A stretch of DNA of 34,305 nt from a virus. The notes under the pieces are model-generated. The model saw only the letters and a list, made by a program, of their open reading frames with translations. It was not told the origin of the DNA and ran no database searches. Shown piece after piece: positions 16,361-33,715 of this stretch (position 1 is the stretch's first letter; every line of letters starts with the position of its first letter). The translations under genes and the position numbers were made by a program. The stretch is taken from IMG/VR virus record IMGVR_UViG_3300047552_000023; one strand, given 5' to 3'.

Positions 16361-16612
16361 TTAGAAGTTGATGTCATCATCCATGAAATCATCGCGTGGT
16401 TTGCTAGGCTCCGCCTTTTGACCTTCTGCGCGTGGTTCAAAGAGATATGCCCACCCTGTCCAGCCGCCTTCGACCAATGGCACTTGATCGAGCTTTAGCA
16501 TATTGCCTTTTTTAGTCTCAATCACAGAGCCGATACGCTGGTAACGCACCTTCTCTTGCCCGTCTTTTTGGTATGTGCCAGCCTTGACTGTTACTTCATA
16601 AATTACTGCCAT
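16361..16612 (-). CDS. Small OB-like protein ending in an SSB-type acidic tip
   Basis: 83 aa with a beta-rich N-terminus. The C-terminus DDFMDDDINF closely mimics the E. coli SSB tip MDFDDDIPF. It lies in the recombination module. Confidence 0.55.
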   Translation of the reverse strand: MAVIYEVTVKAGTYQKDGQEKVRYQRIGSVIETKKGNMLKLDQVPLVEGGWTGWAYLFEPRAEGQKAEPSKPRDDFMDDDINF

Positions 16613-16862
16613 TTTTTTCTTTCAAGTGGTTAAAAATTTTTTCAAGTGTTGGTGCTGCAATTCTGCAAAATCCAACTGGTGTATGAGGATACCAATGCAA
16701 AACCCATAAGCTATCCGTGTCAATTGCTTCTTGCATTTCATCTTTAGACAAAAACGCATCTTGCAAATCAAGATCAGCAATGTGCTGTTCAACGCTTATG
16801 TAATAGTTTTTATGCTCATTGTGTTCAAGAGACAAACCAGCTTCATGTTTTGGAAATTCCAT
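16596..16862 (-). CDS. Hypothetical early protein (88 aa)
   Basis: ORF with short overlaps to both neighbours on the minus strand. Confidence 0.5.
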   Translation of the reverse strand: MEFPKHEAGLSLEHNEHKNYYISVEQHIADLDLQDAFLSKDEMQEAIDTDSLWVLHWYPHTPVGFCRIAAPTLEKIFNHLKEKNGSNL

Positions 16863-17478
16863 GATTTTCTTTTAGTTCGTTAAGTTTCATAATTTTGCCA
16901 TCCAGTTCTGTGAGAAACTTTTTGACTTCTTCTTCAAGCATTTGAATGTAAGCGTTATCGCGTGGGACACGCTTTACAAACAATTGAAGTCCGTCTGTCA
17001 TTCGTGGGTCAAAGCTCACGAAATCACACCATTGGCGACCAGTGCAAGCCATTTGCCATTGCATCTGAGTAACGTACTCGCCTGGCACAGTTTGGCTCAA
17101 CAAAGTGTCGATGTGCGTTGCCGTGTTTGGGCATTTAATCTCAAGCTGACCATCATCGCCAACAAGCCCGTCAGGTGAAGCGCCAGCCTGCTCAATCGTT
17201 GGATGTTGAATCATGGCTACTTCATCCACTAAAACGTCTGCATGAGCCTCATACGCTGCTCTAGCCAATGGTTCGGTTTCAGTGCCATGAACCATAGCAG
17301 CATTGCTAAAAGATTCAGCCACAGTTCCTGTCATGCGTTCGCAGACAAGTTGAGCCATGTAGTTTTCACGGCTAGTTGAATATCCTGTTTTGGTCTTGGC
17401 GATAACGTCAGCAACACGGCTGGCGGTAACTTTGCCCAATCGTTGAGCAAACCATTCGGGTGAGCCTTGTTCAATCAT
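16843..17478 (-). CDS. YqaJ-type (lambda Exo-like) recombination exonuclease
   Basis: 211 aa. GSPEWFAQRLGKVTASRVADVI...HGTETEPLARAAYE...ASPDGLV...LEIKCP is the PD-(D/E)XK YqaJ signature. Confidence 0.85.
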   Translation of the reverse strand: MIEQGSPEWFAQRLGKVTASRVADVIAKTKTGYSTSRENYMAQLVCERMTGTVAESFSNAAMVHGTETEPLARAAYEAHADVLVDEVAMIQHPTIEQAGASPDGLVGDDGQLEIKCPNTATHIDTLLSQTVPGEYVTQMQWQMACTGRQWCDFVSFDPRMTDGLQLFVKRVPRDNAYIQMLEEEVKKFLTELDGKIMKLNELKENHGISKT

Positions 17479-17641
17479 TTTTAATCCCCCAAGGTAACCA
17501 GCACATTGCTGTAAACCACATAAAGTTTTCCATGTATCTTATTTCGTGTTGCGTATAGCTTATGACTGTTACTGACAAAGCAAGCCCAATGTTTACAAAC
17601 ATCAAAGCAACGACTATCCAAGTAAAAAATGATCTAATCAT
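17471..17641 (-). CDS. 56-aa membrane microprotein between erf and exo (below the track cutoff)
   Basis: Hand translation gives MIRSFFTWIVVALMFVNIGLALSVTVISYTQHEIRYMENFMWFTAMCWLPWGIKND. It has an ATGA overlap with the erf stop and an 8-nt overlap (ATGATTGA) with the exo start. Confidence 0.5.
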   Translation of the reverse strand: MIRSFFTWIVVALMFVNIGLALSVTVISYTQHEIRYMENFMWFTAMCWLPWGIKND

Positions 17642-18192
17642 TTCAAGCTCGCTTTCTTTTCATCTTTGACTGCAATGATTTTCTTTTGCCAATTAGCATC
17701 TGTGCCACAGGATTTGTAGGCAGCTTGGTAGGCTGCTTTTAACGATGCTTCGTCAATTGCGTCTTGAATAGCCGTGATGTGGTCAGCCATCATGCTGGAA
17801 TCCACAACAGTCTTTTCAGAGCGTGTTGCACGATTTCCATCATCATCTTCTGGAGCAATACCGCAAGCAGCCATCAAGCTGTAACGTCTAGCGTATGTCA
17901 GCGCAGAAGCATAACCCTGTGGGTCTTTCTTGACAGCAGGAAAGTGAACAATGCCACATTCCAACATCTCGCCTGATTCATGGACAAAGACTGTTTCGCA
18001 CATGATGCCATCGGCGCAGTCATAGTTCTTTTGCAACAGGAAAATGCCGTTGTTGTTTAAAGCGTCAATGACAGCCTCAACGCAAGCAGACAGGTCTGCA
18101 TACTTAGAACGGAAATGAGGGTTTGTAGATGTCTTTAAAGCAGGGCCAAAGGCTTTCTGTGCTTTGACCAAAGCTGATGCGATGTTTTTCAT
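17638..18192 (-). CDS. erf: ERF-family single-strand annealing protein
   Basis: 184 aa. NPHFRSKYADLSACVEAV...VHESGE...GYASALTYARRYSLMAACGIAPEDDDG is the classic ERF motif set. Confidence 0.85.
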   Translation of the reverse strand: MKNIASALVKAQKAFGPALKTSTNPHFRSKYADLSACVEAVIDALNNNGIFLLQKNYDCADGIMCETVFVHESGEMLECGIVHFPAVKKDPQGYASALTYARRYSLMAACGIAPEDDDGNRATRSEKTVVDSSMMADHITAIQDAIDEASLKAAYQAAYKSCGTDANWQKKIIAVKDEKKASLK

Positions 18193-18905
18193 GCTTGTAC
18201 TCCAAAATTAAAAGCAATCAATTGACAAAACAAACGGTATTGCTCTAAATGTTGTTGATTGTTTTTGTGAGTGTTTTCAATTTGTTTTAAAAATTCTGCA
18301 ACTGTTCCTGAGAAACAACCACAAACAACACGGACACCTAATTTGTCGTCAACAAAAGCTGTTGTAAACCGCCCAGATGATTTTGCAGGCCCAATAAGTA
18401 ACCATTCAGTCCTGCCGGAGACCAACGCATCGCCGGAGACCCACGCATCGCCGGAGACCTGCGCATTGCCGTAGACCCGCGCATTGCCGGAGACCAACGC
18501 ATCGCCGGAGACCCACGCATCGCCGGAGACCTGCGCATCGCCGGAGACCTGCGCATTGCCGTAGACCCGCGCATTGCCGGAGACCTGCGCATTGCCGTAG
18601 ACCTGCGCATCGCCGGAGACCTGCGCATCGCCGGAGACCTGCGCATTGCCGTAGACCTGCGCATCGCCGGAGACCTGCGCATCGCCGGAGACCTGCGCAT
18701 TGCCGTAGACCCACGCATCGCCGGAGACCTGCGCATTGCCGTAGACCCACGCATTGCCAATCTGACTTAGATTTTTTTCTGATTCAACATATCCACCCAA
18801 ATCATTAGGAGCAACTAACTCGCCAATTGCAACAATCGCTTTGATTCGGTAAAGTGTTTTACCAAAAAACTGTTTTGTGTCGGTTTTTACAAGTTCGTAT
18901 TTCAT
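18189..18905 (-). CDS. Hexapeptide-repeat (predicted left-handed beta-helix) protein
   Basis: 238 aa from ATG 18905 (MKYELVKTDTKQFFGKTLYRIKA...). It has 19 consecutive G[DN]A[QWRL]V[SY] units, then a C-terminal domain containing VVCGCFSGTVAEFLKQIENTH. The track start at 19007 is upstream read-through in the same frame. Confidence 0.8.
   Translation of the reverse strand: MKYELVKTDTKQFFGKTLYRIKAIVAIGELVAPNDLGGYVESEKNLSQIGNAWVYGNAQVSGDAWVYGNAQVSGDAQVSGDAQVYGNAQVSGDAQVSGDAQVYGNAQVSGNARVYGNAQVSGDAQVSGDAWVSGDALVSGNARVYGNAQVSGDAWVSGDALVSGRTEWLLIGPAKSSGRFTTAFVDDKLGVRVVCGCFSGTVAEFLKQIENTHKNNQQHLEQYRLFCQLIAFNFGVQA
18417..18758 (-). repeat. 19 x 18-bp tandem coding repeat
   Basis: The units are ggagacctgcgcatcgcc and close variants, parsed one by one. 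18597-18650 is duplicated perfectly at 18651-18704 (54 bp = 3 units). All three minus frames are open, which produces two artefactual track ORFs. Confidence 0.95.
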
Positions 18906-19102
18906 TACTTTGCTCCAAAGACAAGCATTGCTGTGATGAAGCCAGCAACAAATGCGTAAAGAATGTTGAGATATTTTTCGTGGTCTGGAGTGTGTGCTTC
19001 CATCCACTCGCCTTGTTGTATGCGCTGAACGTCTTGAACGTTGCTTGGGAACGCTTCTTCAAGAGTGCGTGGAAATGTGCGGGTGGTGTCGTTGACTTTC
19101 AT
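18905..19102 (-). CDS. First leftward early gene: 65-aa tail-anchored membrane protein
   Basis: MKVNDTTRTFPRTLEEAF... with a C-terminal TM YLNILYAFVAGFITAMLVFGA. GGAG lies 5-8 nt upstream of the ATG. A TAATG overlap links it to the next gene. Confidence 0.55.
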   Translation of the reverse strand: MKVNDTTRTFPRTLEEAFPSNVQDVQRIQQGEWMEAHTPDHEKYLNILYAFVAGFITAMLVFGAK

Positions 19103-19237
19103 GGTTGCTCCTAAATTACCGCTTGCGTTGCGCTACGGGATGAATGAAGTATATCTAGTTTTCTAGACATTTTCAAAGAAACTAAAAATATTTTGCAATC
19201 TGTTGCTTTTTTGTCAAAAAATGTAGACAATGCACGA
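19103..19237. promoter_or_regulatory. Divergent early promoter/operator region
   Basis: This is the only place where gene orientation diverges. The palindromic hexamer TTGCAA (19193-19198) can serve as the -35 in both directions. Leftward it has an 18-nt spacer to GAAAAT (19174-19169). Rightward it has an 18-nt spacer to AAAAAT (19217-19222). Confidence 0.45.
19154..19167. promoter_or_regulatory. Perfect palindrome TCTAGTTTTCTAGA (candidate operator)
   Basis: A 14-bp perfect inverted repeat sits just downstream of the putative leftward -10. A related half-site, gTAGACA, recurs at 19223-19229 over the putative rightward start. Confidence 0.35.
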
Positions 19238-19408
19238 ATGGACATCAACAATATTATCAAGAAGGTAGGCTCACAGAGTGAGCTTGCGCGACTTCTAGGT
19301 GTAAAGCGCACGACTGTTTGGCTCTGGAAAAAGACAGGCAAAGTGCCGCAATCACGCATCTGGCAAATTCAACTCAACCACCCTGAACTTTTAAAGGAAA
19401 CGAAATGA
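19238..19408 (+). CDS. Cro/YdaS-like HTH regulator
   Basis: 56 aa from ATG 19238. VGSQSELARLLGVKRTTVWLWKKTGKVPQSRIWQIQ is an HTH followed by the 'vP' motif of Cro/YdaS-like proteins. No SD is visible, so the transcript may be near-leaderless. Confidence 0.65.
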   Translation: MDINNIIKKVGSQSELARLLGVKRTTVWLWKKTGKVPQSRIWQIQLNHPELLKETK

Positions 19409-20020: not shown

Positions 20021-20119
20021 GTTTTGAAACAAGGCTAGGTCTGAAGTCATGAGCAGACCGAAAAGCGAACCTCCCGCCTGCCTGCGTTTCTTTTTCTGGA
20101 GGGTTTGCGAGGATGCCTT

Positions 20120-20881
20120 ATGGCTACAAAAGTCGATATATGGATGCCGCTATACATTGCGGATTACTTGTCTGCCACTTCACGGCTGACTACTGAGCAA
20201 CACGGAGCATATTTGCTCTTGCTGATGGACTATTGGAAAAGCGGTGCGCCGCCTGACAATGATGCAGTCCTTGCTCAGATTACAAAACTTTCACCAGATG
20301 CTTGGGCTAATGCTCGGACTATGCTTGAACCATTCTTTGAAATACAAGATGGAGCATGGTTTCAACCTCGCGTTGAAAACGAGATGGCAAAAGCAAATCA
20401 CAACAAACAGGCTAACAAAGAGCGTGGCTTGAAAGGTGCGCAGGCTCGTTGGGGCAATAAAAATGCTCCAAGCATAGTCGAAGCATACTCGGAGCAATGC
20501 TCGGCAGATAGCACATCACCTTCACCTTCACCTTCAAAAAATACAAAAAGAGATAAAGCAATTTCCATTGCTTGCCCTTCTGATGTTGACCAACAAGTTT
20601 GGGCTGATTGGTTGCAACTTAGGAAAACCAAGAAAGCATCTGTGACAGAGACGGTTATTAAAGGCGCTCGATCTGAATCTGTAAAAGCTGGAATTCCATT
20701 AAACGAATTTTTGGAAATTTGGTGTTTGCGTGGTTCACAAGGATTAGAAGCATCTTGGATTAAACCTGATGAACGAAATAGAGCTTTGAGTAAGGCTGGT
20801 CAAACAACTCAAACCGTAATGTCTGGATTGACCCGTGGATTGATTGGAGGGACTTCAAATGCAAAACTCTTACTCAAATAA
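20120..20881 (+). CDS. DUF1376-type replication-associated protein
   Basis: 253 aa from ATG 20120 (GAGGA 6 nt upstream). WMPLYIADYLSATSRLTTEQHGAYLLLLMDYWKSGAPPDNDAVLAQI is the DUF1376 signature. An internal (CACCTT)x3 at 20517-20534 encodes an SPSPSPS linker. Confidence 0.7.
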   Translation: MATKVDIWMPLYIADYLSATSRLTTEQHGAYLLLLMDYWKSGAPPDNDAVLAQITKLSPDAWANARTMLEPFFEIQDGAWFQPRVENEMAKANHNKQANKERGLKGAQARWGNKNAPSIVEAYSEQCSADSTSPSPSPSKNTKRDKAISIACPSDVDQQVWADWLQLRKTKKASVTETVIKGARSESVKAGIPLNEFLEIWCLRGSQGLEASWIKPDERNRALSKAGQTTQTVMSGLTRGLIGGTSNAKLLLK

Positions 20882-21245
20882 AAGCTGTACTGAAGCTGAT
20901 GGCTTGGATTACATCTTTGCCTATATGGGCGCAGTTTATGGTGCTGCATTTAGTCGCCATTGGGATGGAAGTGACCCAACTACGGTGAGAGCTGTTTGGG
21001 AGGAAGTTGTTGGTGTTCATTTGACGAGCAAATCAACAATGGATTACGCATTGGAAAACTTGCCTGCTGATTTTCCACCTTCTGCGATTGCCTTTCGCAA
21101 TCTGTGTATTGATGGTGTCAAGAAAAACAAAAAATTTGATCGTGACCCTGCATTGCTTCAGATTGAGGAAGACGCAAAGAAGGCAACCAAGCCAAATGCT
21201 GATGTGCAAGCGCGAATTGCTGAACTTTTGAAGGGTAAAGTATGA
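20859..21245 (+). CDS. Replication-module accessory protein (128 aa)
   Basis: GGAGGG lies 7 nt upstream of ATG 20859. The gene is adjacent to, and overlaps, the DUF1376 gene. Function is inferred only from position. Confidence 0.5.
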   Translation: MQNSYSNKSCTEADGLDYIFAYMGAVYGAAFSRHWDGSDPTTVRAVWEEVVGVHLTSKSTMDYALENLPADFPPSAIAFRNLCIDGVKKNKKFDRDPALLQIEEDAKKATKPNADVQARIAELLKGKV

Positions 21246-21982
21246 GAATCGTGTGTTGGTTTAGCTGCGGAGCCGCAAGCGCAGTCGCTACAAAACTTGC
21301 TATTGCTGAAAATGCAGGTAAGTTGCCTTTAATCATTGCCTACACCGAGGTGTCTGAAGAACACCCAGACAACAAGCGATTCCTGAAAGAATGTGAGGCT
21401 TGGTTTGGTCAAGAAATCCAAATTCTGCGCAACGAAAAGTATCAAGGCAGCATTTTCAACGTCTTTGAGAAAAATCGTTACATCGTAGGAATTGCTGGCG
21501 CTCCATGCACAAAGTTTCTGAAAAAAGAAGTTCGCCAGAAGTTTGAACAACTGACAGACCGTCAGGTGTTTGGCTATACGGCTGAAGAACAGCACCGACT
21601 AGACCGCTTTATTGATGCCAACAACGATGTGGACATTTGGACACCGCTGATTGACAAAGGGTTGTCAAAAGAAGACTGTCTGGCAATGCTTCAAAACGCA
21701 AATATTGAACTGCCTGAGATGTACCGTCTTGGCTACCACAACAACAATTGCATCGGCTGTGTGAAAGGTGGAGCTGGCTATTGGAACAAGATTCGTGTGG
21801 ATTTTCCGCAACACTTTGAACGCATGGCAAAACTTGAGCGTGTTATTGGCGCAAGCATTACAAAGTCAAAAGGTGAACGGGTCTATCTTGACGAGCTGCC
21901 GCCAGATGCAGGAGATTACCCAACAGAGCAAAACATCGAGTGTTCTATCTTTTGCCATATGGCTGAATCGGAATACAAATGA
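21242..21982 (+). CDS. PP-loop ATPase, PAPS-reductase-like
   Basis: 246 aa. It has an N-terminal VCWFSCGAASAV (a variant SGGxDS PP-loop) and a later NNNCIGCVKGG cysteine motif, as in phage PAPS-reductase-like proteins. Confidence 0.7.
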   Translation: MRIVCWFSCGAASAVATKLAIAENAGKLPLIIAYTEVSEEHPDNKRFLKECEAWFGQEIQILRNEKYQGSIFNVFEKNRYIVGIAGAPCTKFLKKEVRQKFEQLTDRQVFGYTAEEQHRLDRFIDANNDVDIWTPLIDKGLSKEDCLAMLQNANIELPEMYRLGYHNNNCIGCVKGGAGYWNKIRVDFPQHFERMAKLERVIGASITKSKGERVYLDELPPDAGDYPTEQNIECSIFCHMAESEYK

Positions 21983-32905: not shown

Positions 32906-33715
32906 ATGGGATGGGGACTAGGCAGCTTAAACCCTGTAAAAATTGCACAGAAGGCAATAAACACGGCTGGAGATATTGGTCAAGGTGCTATTGATACAGC
33001 AAAAGACCTTGGCGCTGGACTTGATAGAACCGTAAGAAGCACATTGCCTGGCGGCTGGACTACTGCCGCTTTGTTGGCTGCTGGTTATTACTATTCACCT
33101 GAAATCAATGCTTATCTAAGTGCTGATGGCACAACAATGGCCGCTGGTGCTGATGTTGCAGCCGCTGATGCTGCTGCCGCTACTGCCGCAGAACAAGCTG
33201 CCGCCGCAGCCGCCGCTGAACAAGCCGCCGCAGCTCAAGCTGCTGAGATTGCCGCACAAAATGCCGCTTGGGATGCTGCCGCAATTGATCTTGCTAATTC
33301 AGCATCCCCTGTATTTGCCACATCTGCCGCTGCTGCTGGTTTGACTTTTAAAGAGGCTTTGGACTACGCTCGCGCTGGTTTGTTGGTGAACGCATTAACT
33401 GGTGACCCACTTGGACTGTCTGATGTAACTGGTAGCGGTGGTAACACATACGCCAATCAAGGCTTTGCACAAGTTCCAATTCCTGAAGATTGGAAGTCGC
33501 CAACTTACGCTGCTTCATCTGCACCAATTGACTTAGAGTCGATTTTCAGCAATCAGAATATGCTTGGTGGCACACAATGGGCTGGTTTGCCAAGTCAACG
33601 CAATATGTCGTTCAATGATATATTTGCCGCAGGACAGCAATCAACGCCAATGGGTACGCCTGTTGACATTAACCAGATCGTGAGTTCAATCCTTGGACAA
33701 ACCACAGTTAGCTAA
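32906..33715 (+). CDS. Ala-rich low-complexity head-module protein
   Basis: 269 aa with a GGGGA RBS. It has a poly-Ala/Gln core (AAADAAAATAAEQAAAAAAAEQAAAAQAAEIAAQNAA) and lies between portal and scaffold. Confidence 0.5.
   Translation: MGWGLGSLNPVKIAQKAINTAGDIGQGAIDTAKDLGAGLDRTVRSTLPGGWTTAALLAAGYYYSPEINAYLSADGTTMAAGADVAAADAAAATAAEQAAAAAAAEQAAAAQAAEIAAQNAAWDAAAIDLANSASPVFATSAAAAGLTFKEALDYARAGLLVNALTGDPLGLSDVTGSGGNTYANQGFAQVPIPEDWKSPTYAASSAPIDLESIFSNQNMLGGTQWAGLPSQRNMSFNDIFAAGQQSTPMGTPVDINQIVSSILGQTTVS

Follow-up and report, generated by a model that had tools for sequence, protein, structure and literature searches.

A capped YdcK-type beta-helix protein with a hypervariable hexapeptide array, encoded in a phage early operon

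We analyzed a gene located on the minus strand of a 34,305-nucleotide stretch of viral DNA, which as a whole is called the window here. The features of the region are collected in Table 1. The first-pass annotation had placed a gene at 18189-18905, and we found that this minus-strand open reading frame of 238 aa is real. It starts with an ATG at 18905, preceded by GGAG 9 nt upstream, and ends with TGA at 18189-18191. A longer frame starting with GTG (19007) is not the gene, since all homologues begin with MK(K)YEL. The stop codon of the gene overlaps the ATG of erf (ATGA), and the gene lies directly 5' of erf in the early arm, as had been described. At the other end, the stop codon of a 65-aa open reading frame overlaps the ATG of the beta-helix gene (TAATG); a 70-aa homologue of this small frame was found in phages which do not carry the beta-helix gene. 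Upstream of both genes there is a promoter-like site, although the count of such sites in the region was not above the expectation from shuffled sequence. Based on this site and the divergent Cro-like gene, we conclude that the beta-helix gene is the second gene of a leftward early operon.

Table 1. Genes and sequence features of the early region of the window.
Feature	Position	Strand	Remarks
YqaJ-type recombination exonuclease, Erf partner, same operon	16843..17478	-	Pfam YqaJ 2.3e-31; PHROG 149
erf, Erf-type single-strand annealing protein	17638..18192	-	Pfam ERF 4e-21; PHROG 2324
Beta-helix protein gene (PHROG 7964 family, three-part)	18189..18905	-	238 aa
Family-specific C-terminal domain, aa 164-238	18192..18416	-	CGCFxGT..EF...TH, near-invariant Gly-Cys
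Array of 19 x 18 bp, aa 50-163, G[ND]A[QWRL]V[SY]	18417..18758	-	Hypervariable cassette
Longest exact internal repeat, 18576-18657 = 18630-18711	18576..18711	-	82 bp
N-terminal cap, aa 1-49, beta-hairpin and motif GGY(V/I)E-E-NLS	18759..18905	-	Homologous to YdcK N-terminus
65-aa ORF, C-terminal hydrophobic helix (membrane ORF)	18905..19102	-	Gene 1 of leftward early operon
Promoter-like site TTGAAA-17-TATACT, upstream of leftward early operon	19148..19176	-	Consensus match only
Divergent Cro/YdaS-like HTH regulator, early control region	19193..19408	+	YdaS_toxin 6.8e-10, P22_Cro 3.3e-7 (Pfam)

The middle part of the gene is an array of short tandem repeats. Direct parsing gave exactly 19 uninterrupted in-frame units of 18 bp, which agrees with the number given in the first-pass annotation. 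Tandem Repeats Finder described the array with a period of 18, 19.2 copies, 0% indels and a score of 487. The unit pattern, with up to 3 mismatches allowed, gave 15 matches, all within the array, while 0.04 were expected by chance. Direct sequence comparison bore out the perfect 54-bp duplication noticed earlier (18597-18650 = 18651-18704). It is included in the 82-bp exact repeat, whose offset of 54 bp corresponds to three units, that is, one helix turn. The array is predicted to form a left-handed beta-helix of about 6.3 turns. Its GC content is 67.8% (GC3 83%), and that of the end domains of the same gene 34-37% (GC3 22-25%). Within the window array, variation was observed only at nucleotide sites 4, 10, 11 and 17 of the unit, and pairwise comparison of codons among the units gave 0 synonymous and 276 non-synonymous differences.

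We counted 2 Arg in the array, as had been stated, but 10 Asp instead of 11. The array carries a net charge of -8 and has a pI of about 4, and the complete protein has a net charge of -5. Asp was found in 5/6 units of one register, and in 3/6 and 2/7 of the other two. The claim that Tyr occurs at every third unit holds for units 3-9 and fails elsewhere, as Tyr is present at units 1, 3, 6, 9, 11 and 16. It had also been suggested that the perfect repeats are prone to slippage and to assembly collapse. We agree that the array is recombination-prone. With respect to collapse, two public contigs belonging to this phage lineage start inside the array (one of them matches the window at 100% identity over 18441-17395), yet every 99-mer of the gene is unique, and therefore the copy number in the window can be resolved with reads of at least 100 nt.

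Judged by its sequence, the protein is a member of the huge phage family PHROG 7964 (Pfam YdcK beta-solenoid repeat). The PHROG 7964 profile matched residues 2-230 (E 6.1e-79), and the three-part architecture of the family is present: a YdcK-like N-cap, a hexapeptide left-handed beta-helix and a C-terminal domain of ~75 aa. We found more than 7600 homologues in temperate and virulent phages of Firmicutes, Proteobacteria, Bacteroidota and Actinobacteria. The survey of unit number proposed in the first-pass annotation gave 3 to 35 units across homologues, with arrays in all three rotational phases (35, 26 and 53). Members carry public names such as acyltransferase, cytoskeletal protein, glycerol kinase and even CRISPR array, all of which are wrong. 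We found nothing in the literature on the function of this phage family, no database record with the exact sequence of the window protein, and no match of the protein to the PADLOC defence models. Orf33 of phage 2972 has been shown to be dispensable (PMC4132740). We rejected it as a family member, as its 471 bp (157 codons) is the size of the Gp157-type gene located beside Sfi19 orf229. Matches to tail-fibre and baseplate PHROGs (E 1e-5 to 1e-6) were attributed to similarity of beta-helix repeats, given the location of the gene in an early operon.

Both end domains were modelled with good scores. In the N-cap, which aligns to YdcK residues 31-65, the pLDDT was 81-87 in the model of the window protein and 94-97 in the model of a homologue. 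The C-terminal domain consists of four beta-strands followed by two helices (pLDDT 88-96 in both models). The invariant columns of the homologue alignments are K2, G37, G38 and E41 in the N-cap, W53, three Ala in the helix, and the Gly-Cys of the C-terminal domain. An exhaustive search with the C-domain profile gave 4014 clusters at 50% identity. We examined 30 representatives, and the hexapeptide repeats preceded the domain in all those without N-terminal truncation. Neither a solved structure nor a Pfam family matched the domain (Pfam, PDB by profile and Foldseek). It is family-specific and absent from other architectures, and therefore fusions give no functional lead. The variant C-termini of a few members had no Pfam match.

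The fold was assigned as follows. Pfam PF18836 matched in 4 stretches with 82.9 bits (gathering cut-off 30, E 3.9e-24), and phmmer against the PDB identified the YdcK crystal structure 2f9c (E 1.1e-13, alignment from residue 23 of the window protein). The NCBIfam equivalog NF040481 for YdcK scored 68.2 bits against a cut-off of 350, so the protein is related to YdcK and is not its orthologue. The AlphaFold model of the window protein (38-sequence alignment) was unusable in the array (pLDDT 31-48), and Foldseek with this model returned noise. We used instead the AF2 model of a 71%-identical homologue with 9 units, P0037 (94-sequence alignment, pLDDT 89.1). Foldseek with this model identified YdcK (2pig/2f9c, E 1.5e-5, probability 1.0), and the lower-ranked beta-helix matches were all left-handed-helix enzymes. 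Since the window array was modelled at low confidence, its handedness is taken from YdcK and from the homologue model. The left-handed beta-helix of hexapeptides proposed at first is thus a YdcK-type beta-solenoid. The protein as a whole is a left-handed beta-helix of the YdcK type that is capped at both ends by conserved domains, the N-cap and a small C-terminal alpha/beta domain.

Several database records call homologues 'acyltransferase', which would make the protein a hexapeptide-repeat enzyme. The first-pass annotation had regarded the flanks as not acyltransferase-like, and we found no acyltransferase signature for the protein in Pfam, NCBIfam or the homologue alignments. Pfam Hexapep PF00132 did not match at E<=0.01, and the NCBIfam transferase models gave 16-22 bits, far under their cut-offs of 160-666. 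There was no catalytic His and there were no acyl-site loops: the helix is perfectly regular, with 19 units without insertions, and the alignments contain no invariant His or other catalytic residue in the helix. An alternative form of this explanation would place a thiol-dependent activity in the C-terminal domain. The CGCFxGT motif is identical to the MsrA active-site signature, the Cys of its near-invariant Gly-Cys could on sequence grounds be a nucleophile, and the Boilgate homologue overlaps a gene for an NrdH-like glutaredoxin. However, thioredoxin and glutaredoxin genes were not recurrent neighbours in about 80 loci. The profile of the C-terminal domain against the PDB gave only a 22-residue active-site-like match to MsrA, which was not significant (E 0.5), and the domain is half of MsrA's size. 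We rejected homology to MsrA and consider an enzyme of either kind very improbable.

NCBI names many members 'polymer-forming cytoskeletal protein', that is, a bactofilin-like protein. The source of this name is a match to Pfam PF04519 (E 8.7e-7), which is marginal (29.5 bits, cut-off 27.9), overlaps the PF18836 repeats and rests on repeat periodicity. Aromatic residues are frequent in the family (W 26% at position 4, Y/F 45% at position 6) and, if exposed, could allow lateral association. Bactofilins are right-handed helices with disordered tails, and they polymerise via free helix ends. In contrast, globular caps close both ends of the helix in the models of the window protein and the homologue. 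No bactofilin was present among the best 50 PDB structural matches, where the neighbours were YdcK and left-handed-helix enzymes. A bactofilin-like, polymer-forming protein seems very unlikely.

We compared the window with the contig L093, which carries the same locus. There were 30 mismatches in 276 nt of the array, all at unit sites 4, 10, 11 and 17. The 228-nt C-domain and the roughly 1.9 kb that follow it downstream (2.1 kb of flank) showed none. The array of L093 is rich in GNARVY and net positive, with 8 Arg and 3 Asp in the 15 visible units. Further, we analyzed 14 locus pairs in which the DNA of the N- and C-terminal domains was 96-100% identical. The arrays differed in 13/14 of them, by up to 11 units and up to 10 charges. 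Differences within the array were likewise present between two isolates, the Vibrio phages 1.034.X and 1.139.B. Among 80 arrays, the median diversity at 4-fold sites of the Gly, Ala and Val codons was 0.032. For codons 2, 4 and 6 it was 0.325, and this second value was the higher one in 79/80 arrays. Silent sites are therefore homogenised within arrays, and variation is found only in the codons of unit positions 2, 4 and 6. The array is a recombination-driven hypervariable cassette, in which the number and order of the units and the residues at positions 2, 4 and 6 change while the flanking DNA stays identical. This hypervariability is a previously unreported evolutionary behaviour. Some of the variation in metagenome assemblies could be due to assembly errors in repeats. 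A search for further array alleles of the exact lineage (with the C-domain protein as query, and by scanning viral and metagenome contigs for exact DNA matches) returned only the contig already known.

An adenine allele at 3/4 of the variable sites prompted us to consider a diversity-generating retroelement. It was rejected, as no template copy was detected outside the array, variable site 10 is C/T, and the adenine at site 5 never varies. In the family, the variable positions use a restricted alphabet: N/D; R/W/Q/E/K; S/Y/F. The array might be a hypervariable recognition surface under diversifying selection, with its three variable unit positions and its number of turns reshuffled by recombination in an arms race against a host target that itself varies, for example a polymer or a protein of a defence system. 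The restricted alphabet could reflect folding constraints and not a binding surface, and we regard a recognition surface as unlikely. If it were one, the family would be a new and very widespread class of effectors for counter-defence or host takeover that carry their own mechanism of variation.

The presence of the gene also differs between close relatives. The exact Erf protein of the window was found on 17 contigs, and on most of them the beta-helix gene is absent beside it. The contigs L091, L092 and L094, together with 10 similar places, share 98.95% identity with the window downwards from 18193 and do not have the gene. In phages of this type homology ends at the ATG of erf, and a 41-aa open reading frame occupies the slot. 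In the relatives P0049, P0003 and P0053 the gene is located in three other positions: after erf, four genes after yqaJ, and in the other early operon. In Sfi19 the homologue follows cro, and in phiAGATE it is part of a cluster of small uncharacterised genes, with an ocr-like gene about 3 kb away. No single neighbour gene predominated in the 80 viral loci surveyed. The gene is dispensable and mobile: of phages that are otherwise near-identical, some have it and others lack it, and its place within the early region changes.

These data also bear on the possibility that the protein is an accessory factor of the phage recombination and replication module, for example a scaffold or regulator working with Erf, the exonuclease or a NinB-type protein, and is not directed against the host. 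In nearly all contexts examined the gene lies in the early DNA-metabolism region. Its neighbours include Erf, RecT, Sak4, exonuclease and NinB, as well as O-like and DnaD-like initiators, Holliday junction resolvase and SSB, and in the window it is coupled to erf through ATGA. However, the annealing proteins associated with it belong to three unrelated families, and most loci have none. In the phage of P0053 the gene and erf are in different operons. The absence of the gene beside an identical Erf indicates that Erf does not need the beta-helix protein. An accessory role in the recombination and replication module seems distinctly unlikely.

The first-pass annotation had proposed the acidic beta-helix rod as a candidate mimic of DNA, which would inhibit RecBCD or some other defence that acts on DNA ends or binds DNA, like Gam of lambda and Abc of P22. 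The charge and pI of the window array, the enrichment of Asp in one register and the translational coupling to erf agree with this proposal, as do the recombination genes among the commoner neighbours (in about 80 loci: Erf 6, exonuclease 5, NinB 6, RecT 2, Sak4 2), also in Mannheimia phage 587AP2 and Sfi19. Several of our observations speak against it: the charge of the array is not conserved, the position of the gene relative to erf is not fixed, and near-identical phages with an identical Erf protein do not carry it. In 120 homologues the charge per hexad ranged from -0.69 to +0.40 (mean -0.22), and at the fourth position of the unit Arg (28%) is more frequent across the family than any other residue. 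The net-positive array of L093 has flanking DNA identical to that of the window, and loci with identical end domains are up to 10 charges apart. Close relatives with 4-5 units (less than 2 turns) barely have a rod, and they keep end domains about 80% identical to those of the window protein; the rod therefore cannot carry the conserved function. Moreover, the Sfi19 homologue adjoins a separate gene annotated in the record as Mu Gam-like. We found no similarity to Gam, Abc, Ocr or ArdA (Pfam, PHROGs, PDB by sequence, Foldseek), and pentapeptide-repeat proteins matched only weakly (E 3.6e-3 or worse, BFVD). A specific analogue of Gam or Abc is not supported, and we hold DNA mimicry of this kind to be very improbable, in spite of the acidic array in the window.

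The explanation that we favour overall, and consider somewhat probable, is that the product is an early accessory protein from a very large phage family, and that its gene is dispensable and moves horizontally. Most likely it is a non-enzymatic binding protein; we infer binding, as opposed to catalysis, from the absence of catalytic signs. Such a protein would bind a host or phage partner stoichiometrically early in infection, like host-takeover or counter-defence proteins. The conserved end domains would provide the constant function, and the helix may serve as a spacer or as a surface with evolvable length. The array could turn over via slippage, unequal crossing-over or gene conversion between the 18-bp and 54-bp repeats, a process that the phage's own Erf/YqaJ annealing system would plausibly aid.

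In summary, these results narrow the candidate identities of the protein to a capped YdcK-type left-handed beta-helix that shows no sign of catalysis, is optional and is expressed early. The family is among the larger phage protein families of unknown function and occurs in phages of at least four bacterial phyla. Natural pairs of phages, with and without the gene or with acidic and basic arrays, are present in public data, and therefore the function is directly testable. If members of the family turned out to act in counter-defence or host takeover, this would hold for thousands of phages.

Similar features are known from several other systems. YdcK of Salmonella and E. coli (PDB 2F9C, 2PIG) has an N-cap motif, GGW/Y-V/I-D/E-x-D/E-N-x-LS, which is homologous to that of the window protein, and both have a hexapeptide solenoid with about 18 residues per turn. 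However, YdcK (326 aa) is encoded on the chromosome, its coils are irregular and non-repetitive, and it lacks the CGCF C-terminal domain. Left-handed beta-helix acyltransferases and gamma-carbonic anhydrases (LpxA, serine acetyltransferase, PglD, C-domain of GlmU) share helix geometry and periodicity, and they were weak structural matches to the homologue model. The window protein differs from the acyltransferases in the lack of a Hexapep match, inserted loops, catalytic His and acyl-CoA residues, and in having other end domains. With bactofilins (PF04519) it shares the periodicity of beta-helical repeats, but it has folded caps at both ends and its structural neighbours are left-handed helices.

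The window protein resembles DNA mimics (pentapeptide-repeat MfpA/Qnr, lambda Gam, T7 Ocr and gp5.9) in that it is a repeat protein of rod shape, has a net-negative array and is encoded in an early phage operon, but it is unrelated to them in sequence and structure. Near-identical tandem units that vary at few defined positions, and a copy number that changes fast between close relatives, are also known from TAL effector RVDs, variable LRR receptors and bacterial contingency loci. This likeness is evolutionary only and implies no homology. The family to which the window gene belongs comprises the proteins of PHROG 7964, 5070 and 20532, among them orf229 of Streptococcus phage Sfi19, gp43 of Mannheimia phage 587AP2 and gp031 of Bacillus phage phiAGATE. 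They have in common with the window gene the three-part architecture, the motifs of the end domains and the location in the early region, and differ from it only in unit number, composition and exact position within that region.

We placed the start of the beta-helix gene at ATG 18905, which is preceded by GGAG. GTG 19007 was ruled out as a start, since all homologues open with MK(K)YEL. Parsing of the array in frame gave exactly the 19 uninterrupted units described in the first-pass annotation, and Tandem Repeats Finder reported a period of 18 bp (19.2 copies, 0 indels, score 487). The 54-bp perfect duplication was real and sits within a longer exact repeat. The count of 2 Arg was correct, while the array contains 10 Asp and not 11 (net charge -8). 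Tyr occupies units 3, 6 and 9 as described, and also units 1, 11 and 16. Asp was found in 5/6 units of one register, and in 3/6 and 2/7 of the other two. The gene does lie immediately upstream of erf, its stop overlapping the erf start as ATGA. Both Erf (Pfam ERF, 4e-21) and a YqaJ exonuclease (Pfam, 2.3e-31) are encoded downstream. From a promoter-like site and a divergent Cro-like gene, we placed the beta-helix gene second in the leftward early operon of a tailed-phage genome (tail fibre, endolysin, large terminase and portal genes are present).

The plus strand of the early control region carries a Cro/YdaS-like gene. Next to it on the minus strand there is no CI-type repressor gene, and the leftward operon opens directly with the 65-aa membrane ORF. 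Among the window ORFs scanned, a minority of the total, there was no integrase.

Positions of the features in the window
Feature	Position	Strand	Remarks
Beta-helix gene	18189-18905	-	238 aa
N-domain	18759-18905	-	part of beta-helix gene
Hexapeptide array	18417-18758	-	19 in-frame units G[DN]A[QWRL]V[SY] (direct parsing)
C-domain	18192-18416	-	part of beta-helix gene
82-bp exact repeat	18576-18657 = 18630-18711		offset 54
65-aa membrane ORF	18905-19102	-	hydrophobic; stop overlaps beta-helix gene start as TAATG
56-aa ORF	17471-17641	-	hydrophobic; with the 65-aa ORF, around beta-helix gene and erf
Promoter-like site	19176-19148	-	upstream of leftward early operon
Early control region	19103-19408
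83-aa ORF	16361-16612	-	in erf operon
Rightward early operon	20105-21982	+
ORF just after portal gene	32906-33715	+	late region
Two adjacent 15-bp tandem arrays	33149-33243		2.2 and 4.3 copies

Every 99-mer of the gene is unique, so reads of at least 100 nt can resolve the array. An independent public contig encoding the same Erf, L095, was 100% identical to the window over 18441-17395. The repeat is nevertheless prone to assembly breakage, as had been suspected: L095 and a second such contig, L093, both begin within the array, and truncated fragments make up many of the family's database entries.

The family to which the gene belongs is catalogued but uncharacterised. The protein matched Pfam PF18836 (YdcK beta-solenoid repeat) at 82.9 bits against a cut-off of 30. 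PHROG 7964 matched along the entire protein (6e-79), and its N- and C-parts were covered by PHROGs 5070 and 20532; none of the three has an assigned function in PHROGs. PADLOC defence models gave no match. YdcK (2f9c/2pig) was the only solved relative by sequence (E 1e-13, with the N-terminal cap in the alignment), and the NCBIfam YdcK equivalog scored 68 bits, far below its cut-off of 350. There were more than 7600 homologues in a clustered protein collection. The family occurs in 85 phage GenBank records, temperate and virulent, with hosts including Streptococcus, Bacillus, Xanthomonas, Vibrio, Mannheimia, Bacteroides, Mycobacterium and Liberibacter. No other record of the exact 238-aa protein and no paper on the function of the family was found. 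Homologues have been named glycerol kinase, MFS transporter, acyltransferase or polymer-forming cytoskeletal protein in public records. The record of Acidovorax phage AP1 has a CDS called across the repeat on the opposite strand, and the records of Vibrio phages 1.034.X and 1.139.B label the array as CRISPR spacers.

Alignments of the homologues showed three parts: a conserved N-domain (K2, G37, G38 and E41 invariant; motif GGY(I/V)E-E-NLS), an array of varying length, and a conserved C-domain of about 75 aa (motif CGCFxGT..EF...TH, with a near-invariant Gly-Cys). An exhaustive search with a C-domain-only profile gave 4014 clusters at 50% identity. Among 30 representatives read, all that were not N-terminally truncated had hexapeptide repeats ahead of the domain. 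Therefore the C-domain is specific to this family, and domain fusions offer no lead.

AlphaFold modelled the N-domain (pLDDT 81-87) and the C-domain (88-96) of the query with confidence, while the array was unusable (31-48) and Foldseek with this model returned only noise. We therefore used P0037, a homologue with 9 units and 71% identity to the query, modelled from a 94-sequence alignment (mean pLDDT 89.1). Its best PDB matches were YdcK chains (E 1.5e-5, probability 1.0), followed at insignificant E-values by serine acetyltransferase, gamma-carbonic anhydrase, Vat/CAT, PglD and GlmU. Every beta-helix match among the PDB structures listed was left-handed. In a viral structure library, only uncharacterised beta-solenoid proteins, apparently family members, fell below 1e-5. 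The YdcK homology and the P0037 model, rather than the query's own model, thus support the proposed left-handed beta-helix with three hexapeptides per turn. By standard helix geometry, 19 units would correspond to about 6.3 turns and a length close to the 30 Å estimated before. The modelled C-domain, with four strands followed by two helices, had no significant structural or sequence match.

A bactofilin-like polymer was suggested by a Pfam match, which is marginal (29.5 bits, cut-off 27.9). We rejected this identity and consider such a polymer very improbable, because the structural neighbours are left-handed helices (no bactofilin among the top 50 PDB matches of P0037) and both helix ends carry predicted folded caps.

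An enzyme, suggested by the hexapeptide repeat and names in the databases, seems the remotest of the readings weighed here. The query had no Pfam Hexapep match, and NCBIfam transferase models scored far under their cut-offs. Inserted loops build the active sites of hexapeptide acyltransferases, and the array is perfectly regular without them. There is no His among the invariant columns, which are the four N-domain residues, W53, three helix Ala and the C-domain Gly-Cys. Acyltransferase identity was rejected on the missing Hexapep match, the regular array and the lack of an invariant His. The protein is a capped YdcK-type beta-helix with family-specific end domains and no catalytic signature.

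A 22-residue stretch of the C-domain resembles the MsrA active-site signature CGCFWGT (PDB 3pim, E 0.5), and the motif CGCFxGT around aa 195-201 is locally identical to it. We did not accept MsrA homology at this E-value. In mycobacteriophage Boilgate (L086, 3247-4262) the start of the homologue overlaps an NrdH-like glutaredoxin gene. Both observations are probably coincidence.

The first-pass annotation had proposed a candidate acidic DNA mimic in the Gam/Abc position, where lambda and P22 keep their RecBCD inhibitors. Charge, rod length, position and neighbours all argue against it. In the 120 best homologues the array had 3-35 units, and its net charge per hexad ranged from -0.69 to +0.40 (mean -0.22). 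The consensus of 1840 hexads was G(88%)-[N53/D40]-A(97%)-[R28/W26/Q20/E7/K6]-V(93%)-[S42/Y34/F11], Arg being the commonest residue at the fourth position. The family median pI was 5.9. Because it has Gln in place of Arg, the window protein falls at the acidic end of the family. The charge even flips sign between otherwise identical phages. The exact window Erf is encoded on 17 public contigs. Of these, L093 had 0 mismatches to the window through the 228-nt C-domain and for about 1.9 kb further downstream, while its array differed at 30/276 positions and was GNARVY-rich (8 Arg and 3 Asp in the 15 units visible). Close relatives with end domains about 80% identical to the query had only 4-5 units, fewer than 2 turns, so the conserved function cannot reside in a DNA-length rod.

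Position was no more constant. The gene lies between erf and yqaJ in the phage of homologue P0049, four genes past yqaJ in that of P0003, and behind the DUF1376 gene of the other early operon in that of P0053. Between window positions 18193 and 16000, contigs L091, L092 and L094, and ten similar places, shared 98.95% identity with the window. There the homology ends exactly at the erf ATG, beyond which lie a 70-aa homologue of the membrane ORF and a 41-aa hydrophobic ORF, and no beta-helix gene. It follows that the gene is optional and that its product is not required by Erf. The 41-aa ORF (L091, 2866-2991) differs from the hydrophobic ORFs of the window, and the site just upstream of erf therefore acts like a variable cargo slot.

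The Sfi19 homologue, orf229, is found after cro and before a gene with its own annotation as 'Mu Gam-like'. That of phiAGATE belongs to a block of small genes without assigned function, roughly 3 kb away from an ocr-like gene, and the Boilgate homologue has methyltransferase, NrdH-like and HNH genes around it. The Gam/Abc reading, the functional claim that had made the finding attractive, is not supported, and these sequences make a DNA mimic or RecBCD inhibitor highly improbable.

We scanned same-strand genes within two genes of 80 IMG/VR loci against PHROGs. Upstream we found Erf (6), NinB (6), O-like initiator (6), exonuclease (5) and DnaD-like (5), and downstream Holliday junction resolvase (5), DNA methyltransferases (about 4), RecT (2) and Sak4 (2). 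This is an early replication/recombination region without a fixed partner. An accessory of recombination or replication would suit such surroundings, and we regard it as unlikely. The gene is located in an early operon, optionally present and mobile in the early region, and its array is hypervariable.

The hypervariability is site-restricted, which appears to be unreported. In the window the Gly (GGC), Ala (GCG) and Val (GTC) codons are identical in all 19 units. Only sites 4, 10, 11 and 17 of the unit vary, and all changes are non-synonymous (0 synonymous versus 276 non-synonymous pairwise codon differences). The differences from L093 were confined to the same sites. GC content was 67.8% in the array (GC3 83%), 34-37% in the N- and C-domains (GC3 22-25%) and 46% in the whole window. 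We compared 80 family arrays with 8 or more units. Within arrays, the median diversity was 0.032 at four-fold sites of the Gly/Ala/Val codons (zero in 31) and 0.325 at positions 1 and 2 of codons 2, 4 and 6; the latter exceeded the silent-site value in 79 arrays. The frozen synonymous codons differ by lineage (e.g. GCT/GTG in P0003, P0049 and P0053). Among 14 locus pairs with N- plus C-domain DNA 96-100% identical, arrays differed in 13, by up to 11 units and 10 charges. The isolate Vibrio phages 1.034.X and 1.139.B had flanks 98% identical and arrays differing by internal rearrangement; in 1.139.B two stop codons inside the array split the gene.

We read this pattern as concerted evolution, which would proceed by slippage, unequal crossing-over or gene conversion between the 18- or 54-bp repeats. 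A diversity-generating retroelement was rejected (no template copy, one variable site C/T, one adenine site invariant). Variation among metagenome contigs may partly be assembly error; it is not all artefact, since isolate phages differ and the pattern is site-restricted. Diversity is retained, as far as these sequences tell, solely at unit positions 2, 4 and 6, which should point outwards by left-handed-helix geometry. The residue alphabet there is narrow, and the diversity may be kept either for folding or solubility or for target recognition. The array DNA is 88.9% identical to that of Acidovorax phage AP1 and the flanks do not match, which suggests possible exchange of arrays between phages.

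In summary, we lean, at slightly better than even odds, towards an optional, mobile, capped beta-helix with a hypervariable array, serving as a non-enzymatic early binder. The protein would act early in infection, binding a host or phage partner via its conserved end domains. N/C-motif spacing was in hexad register in 114/173 proteins, with all three rotational phases seen (35, 26 and 53), so the helix ends need no fixed mutual orientation. The helix may be a spacer or surface of evolvable length, and the Erf/YqaJ system that the phage itself encodes possibly speeds up the turnover of the array. Natural pairs of phages with and without the gene, and with acidic and basic alleles, make function testable. 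The family remains of interest for its size, its breadth and the systematic errors in its annotation.

Other features of the window were also observed. The rightward early operon carries the gene for a DUF1376 protein (putative replication protein), followed by a phosphoadenosine-phosphosulfate reductase-like gene (PHROG 424), a type often linked in phages to DNA modification. The ORF just after the portal gene may specify a scaffold or head protein with Ala/Glu-rich repeats, encoded by the 15-bp tandem arrays. The 83-aa ORF of the erf operon had no Pfam match and matched PHROG 18187, of unknown function in PHROGs. Its product ends in ...RDDFMDDDINF, a sequence similar to the acidic tip (DDDIPF) at the C-terminus of bacterial SSB, and could bind ssDNA as a small protein or compete for the clients of the SSB tail.
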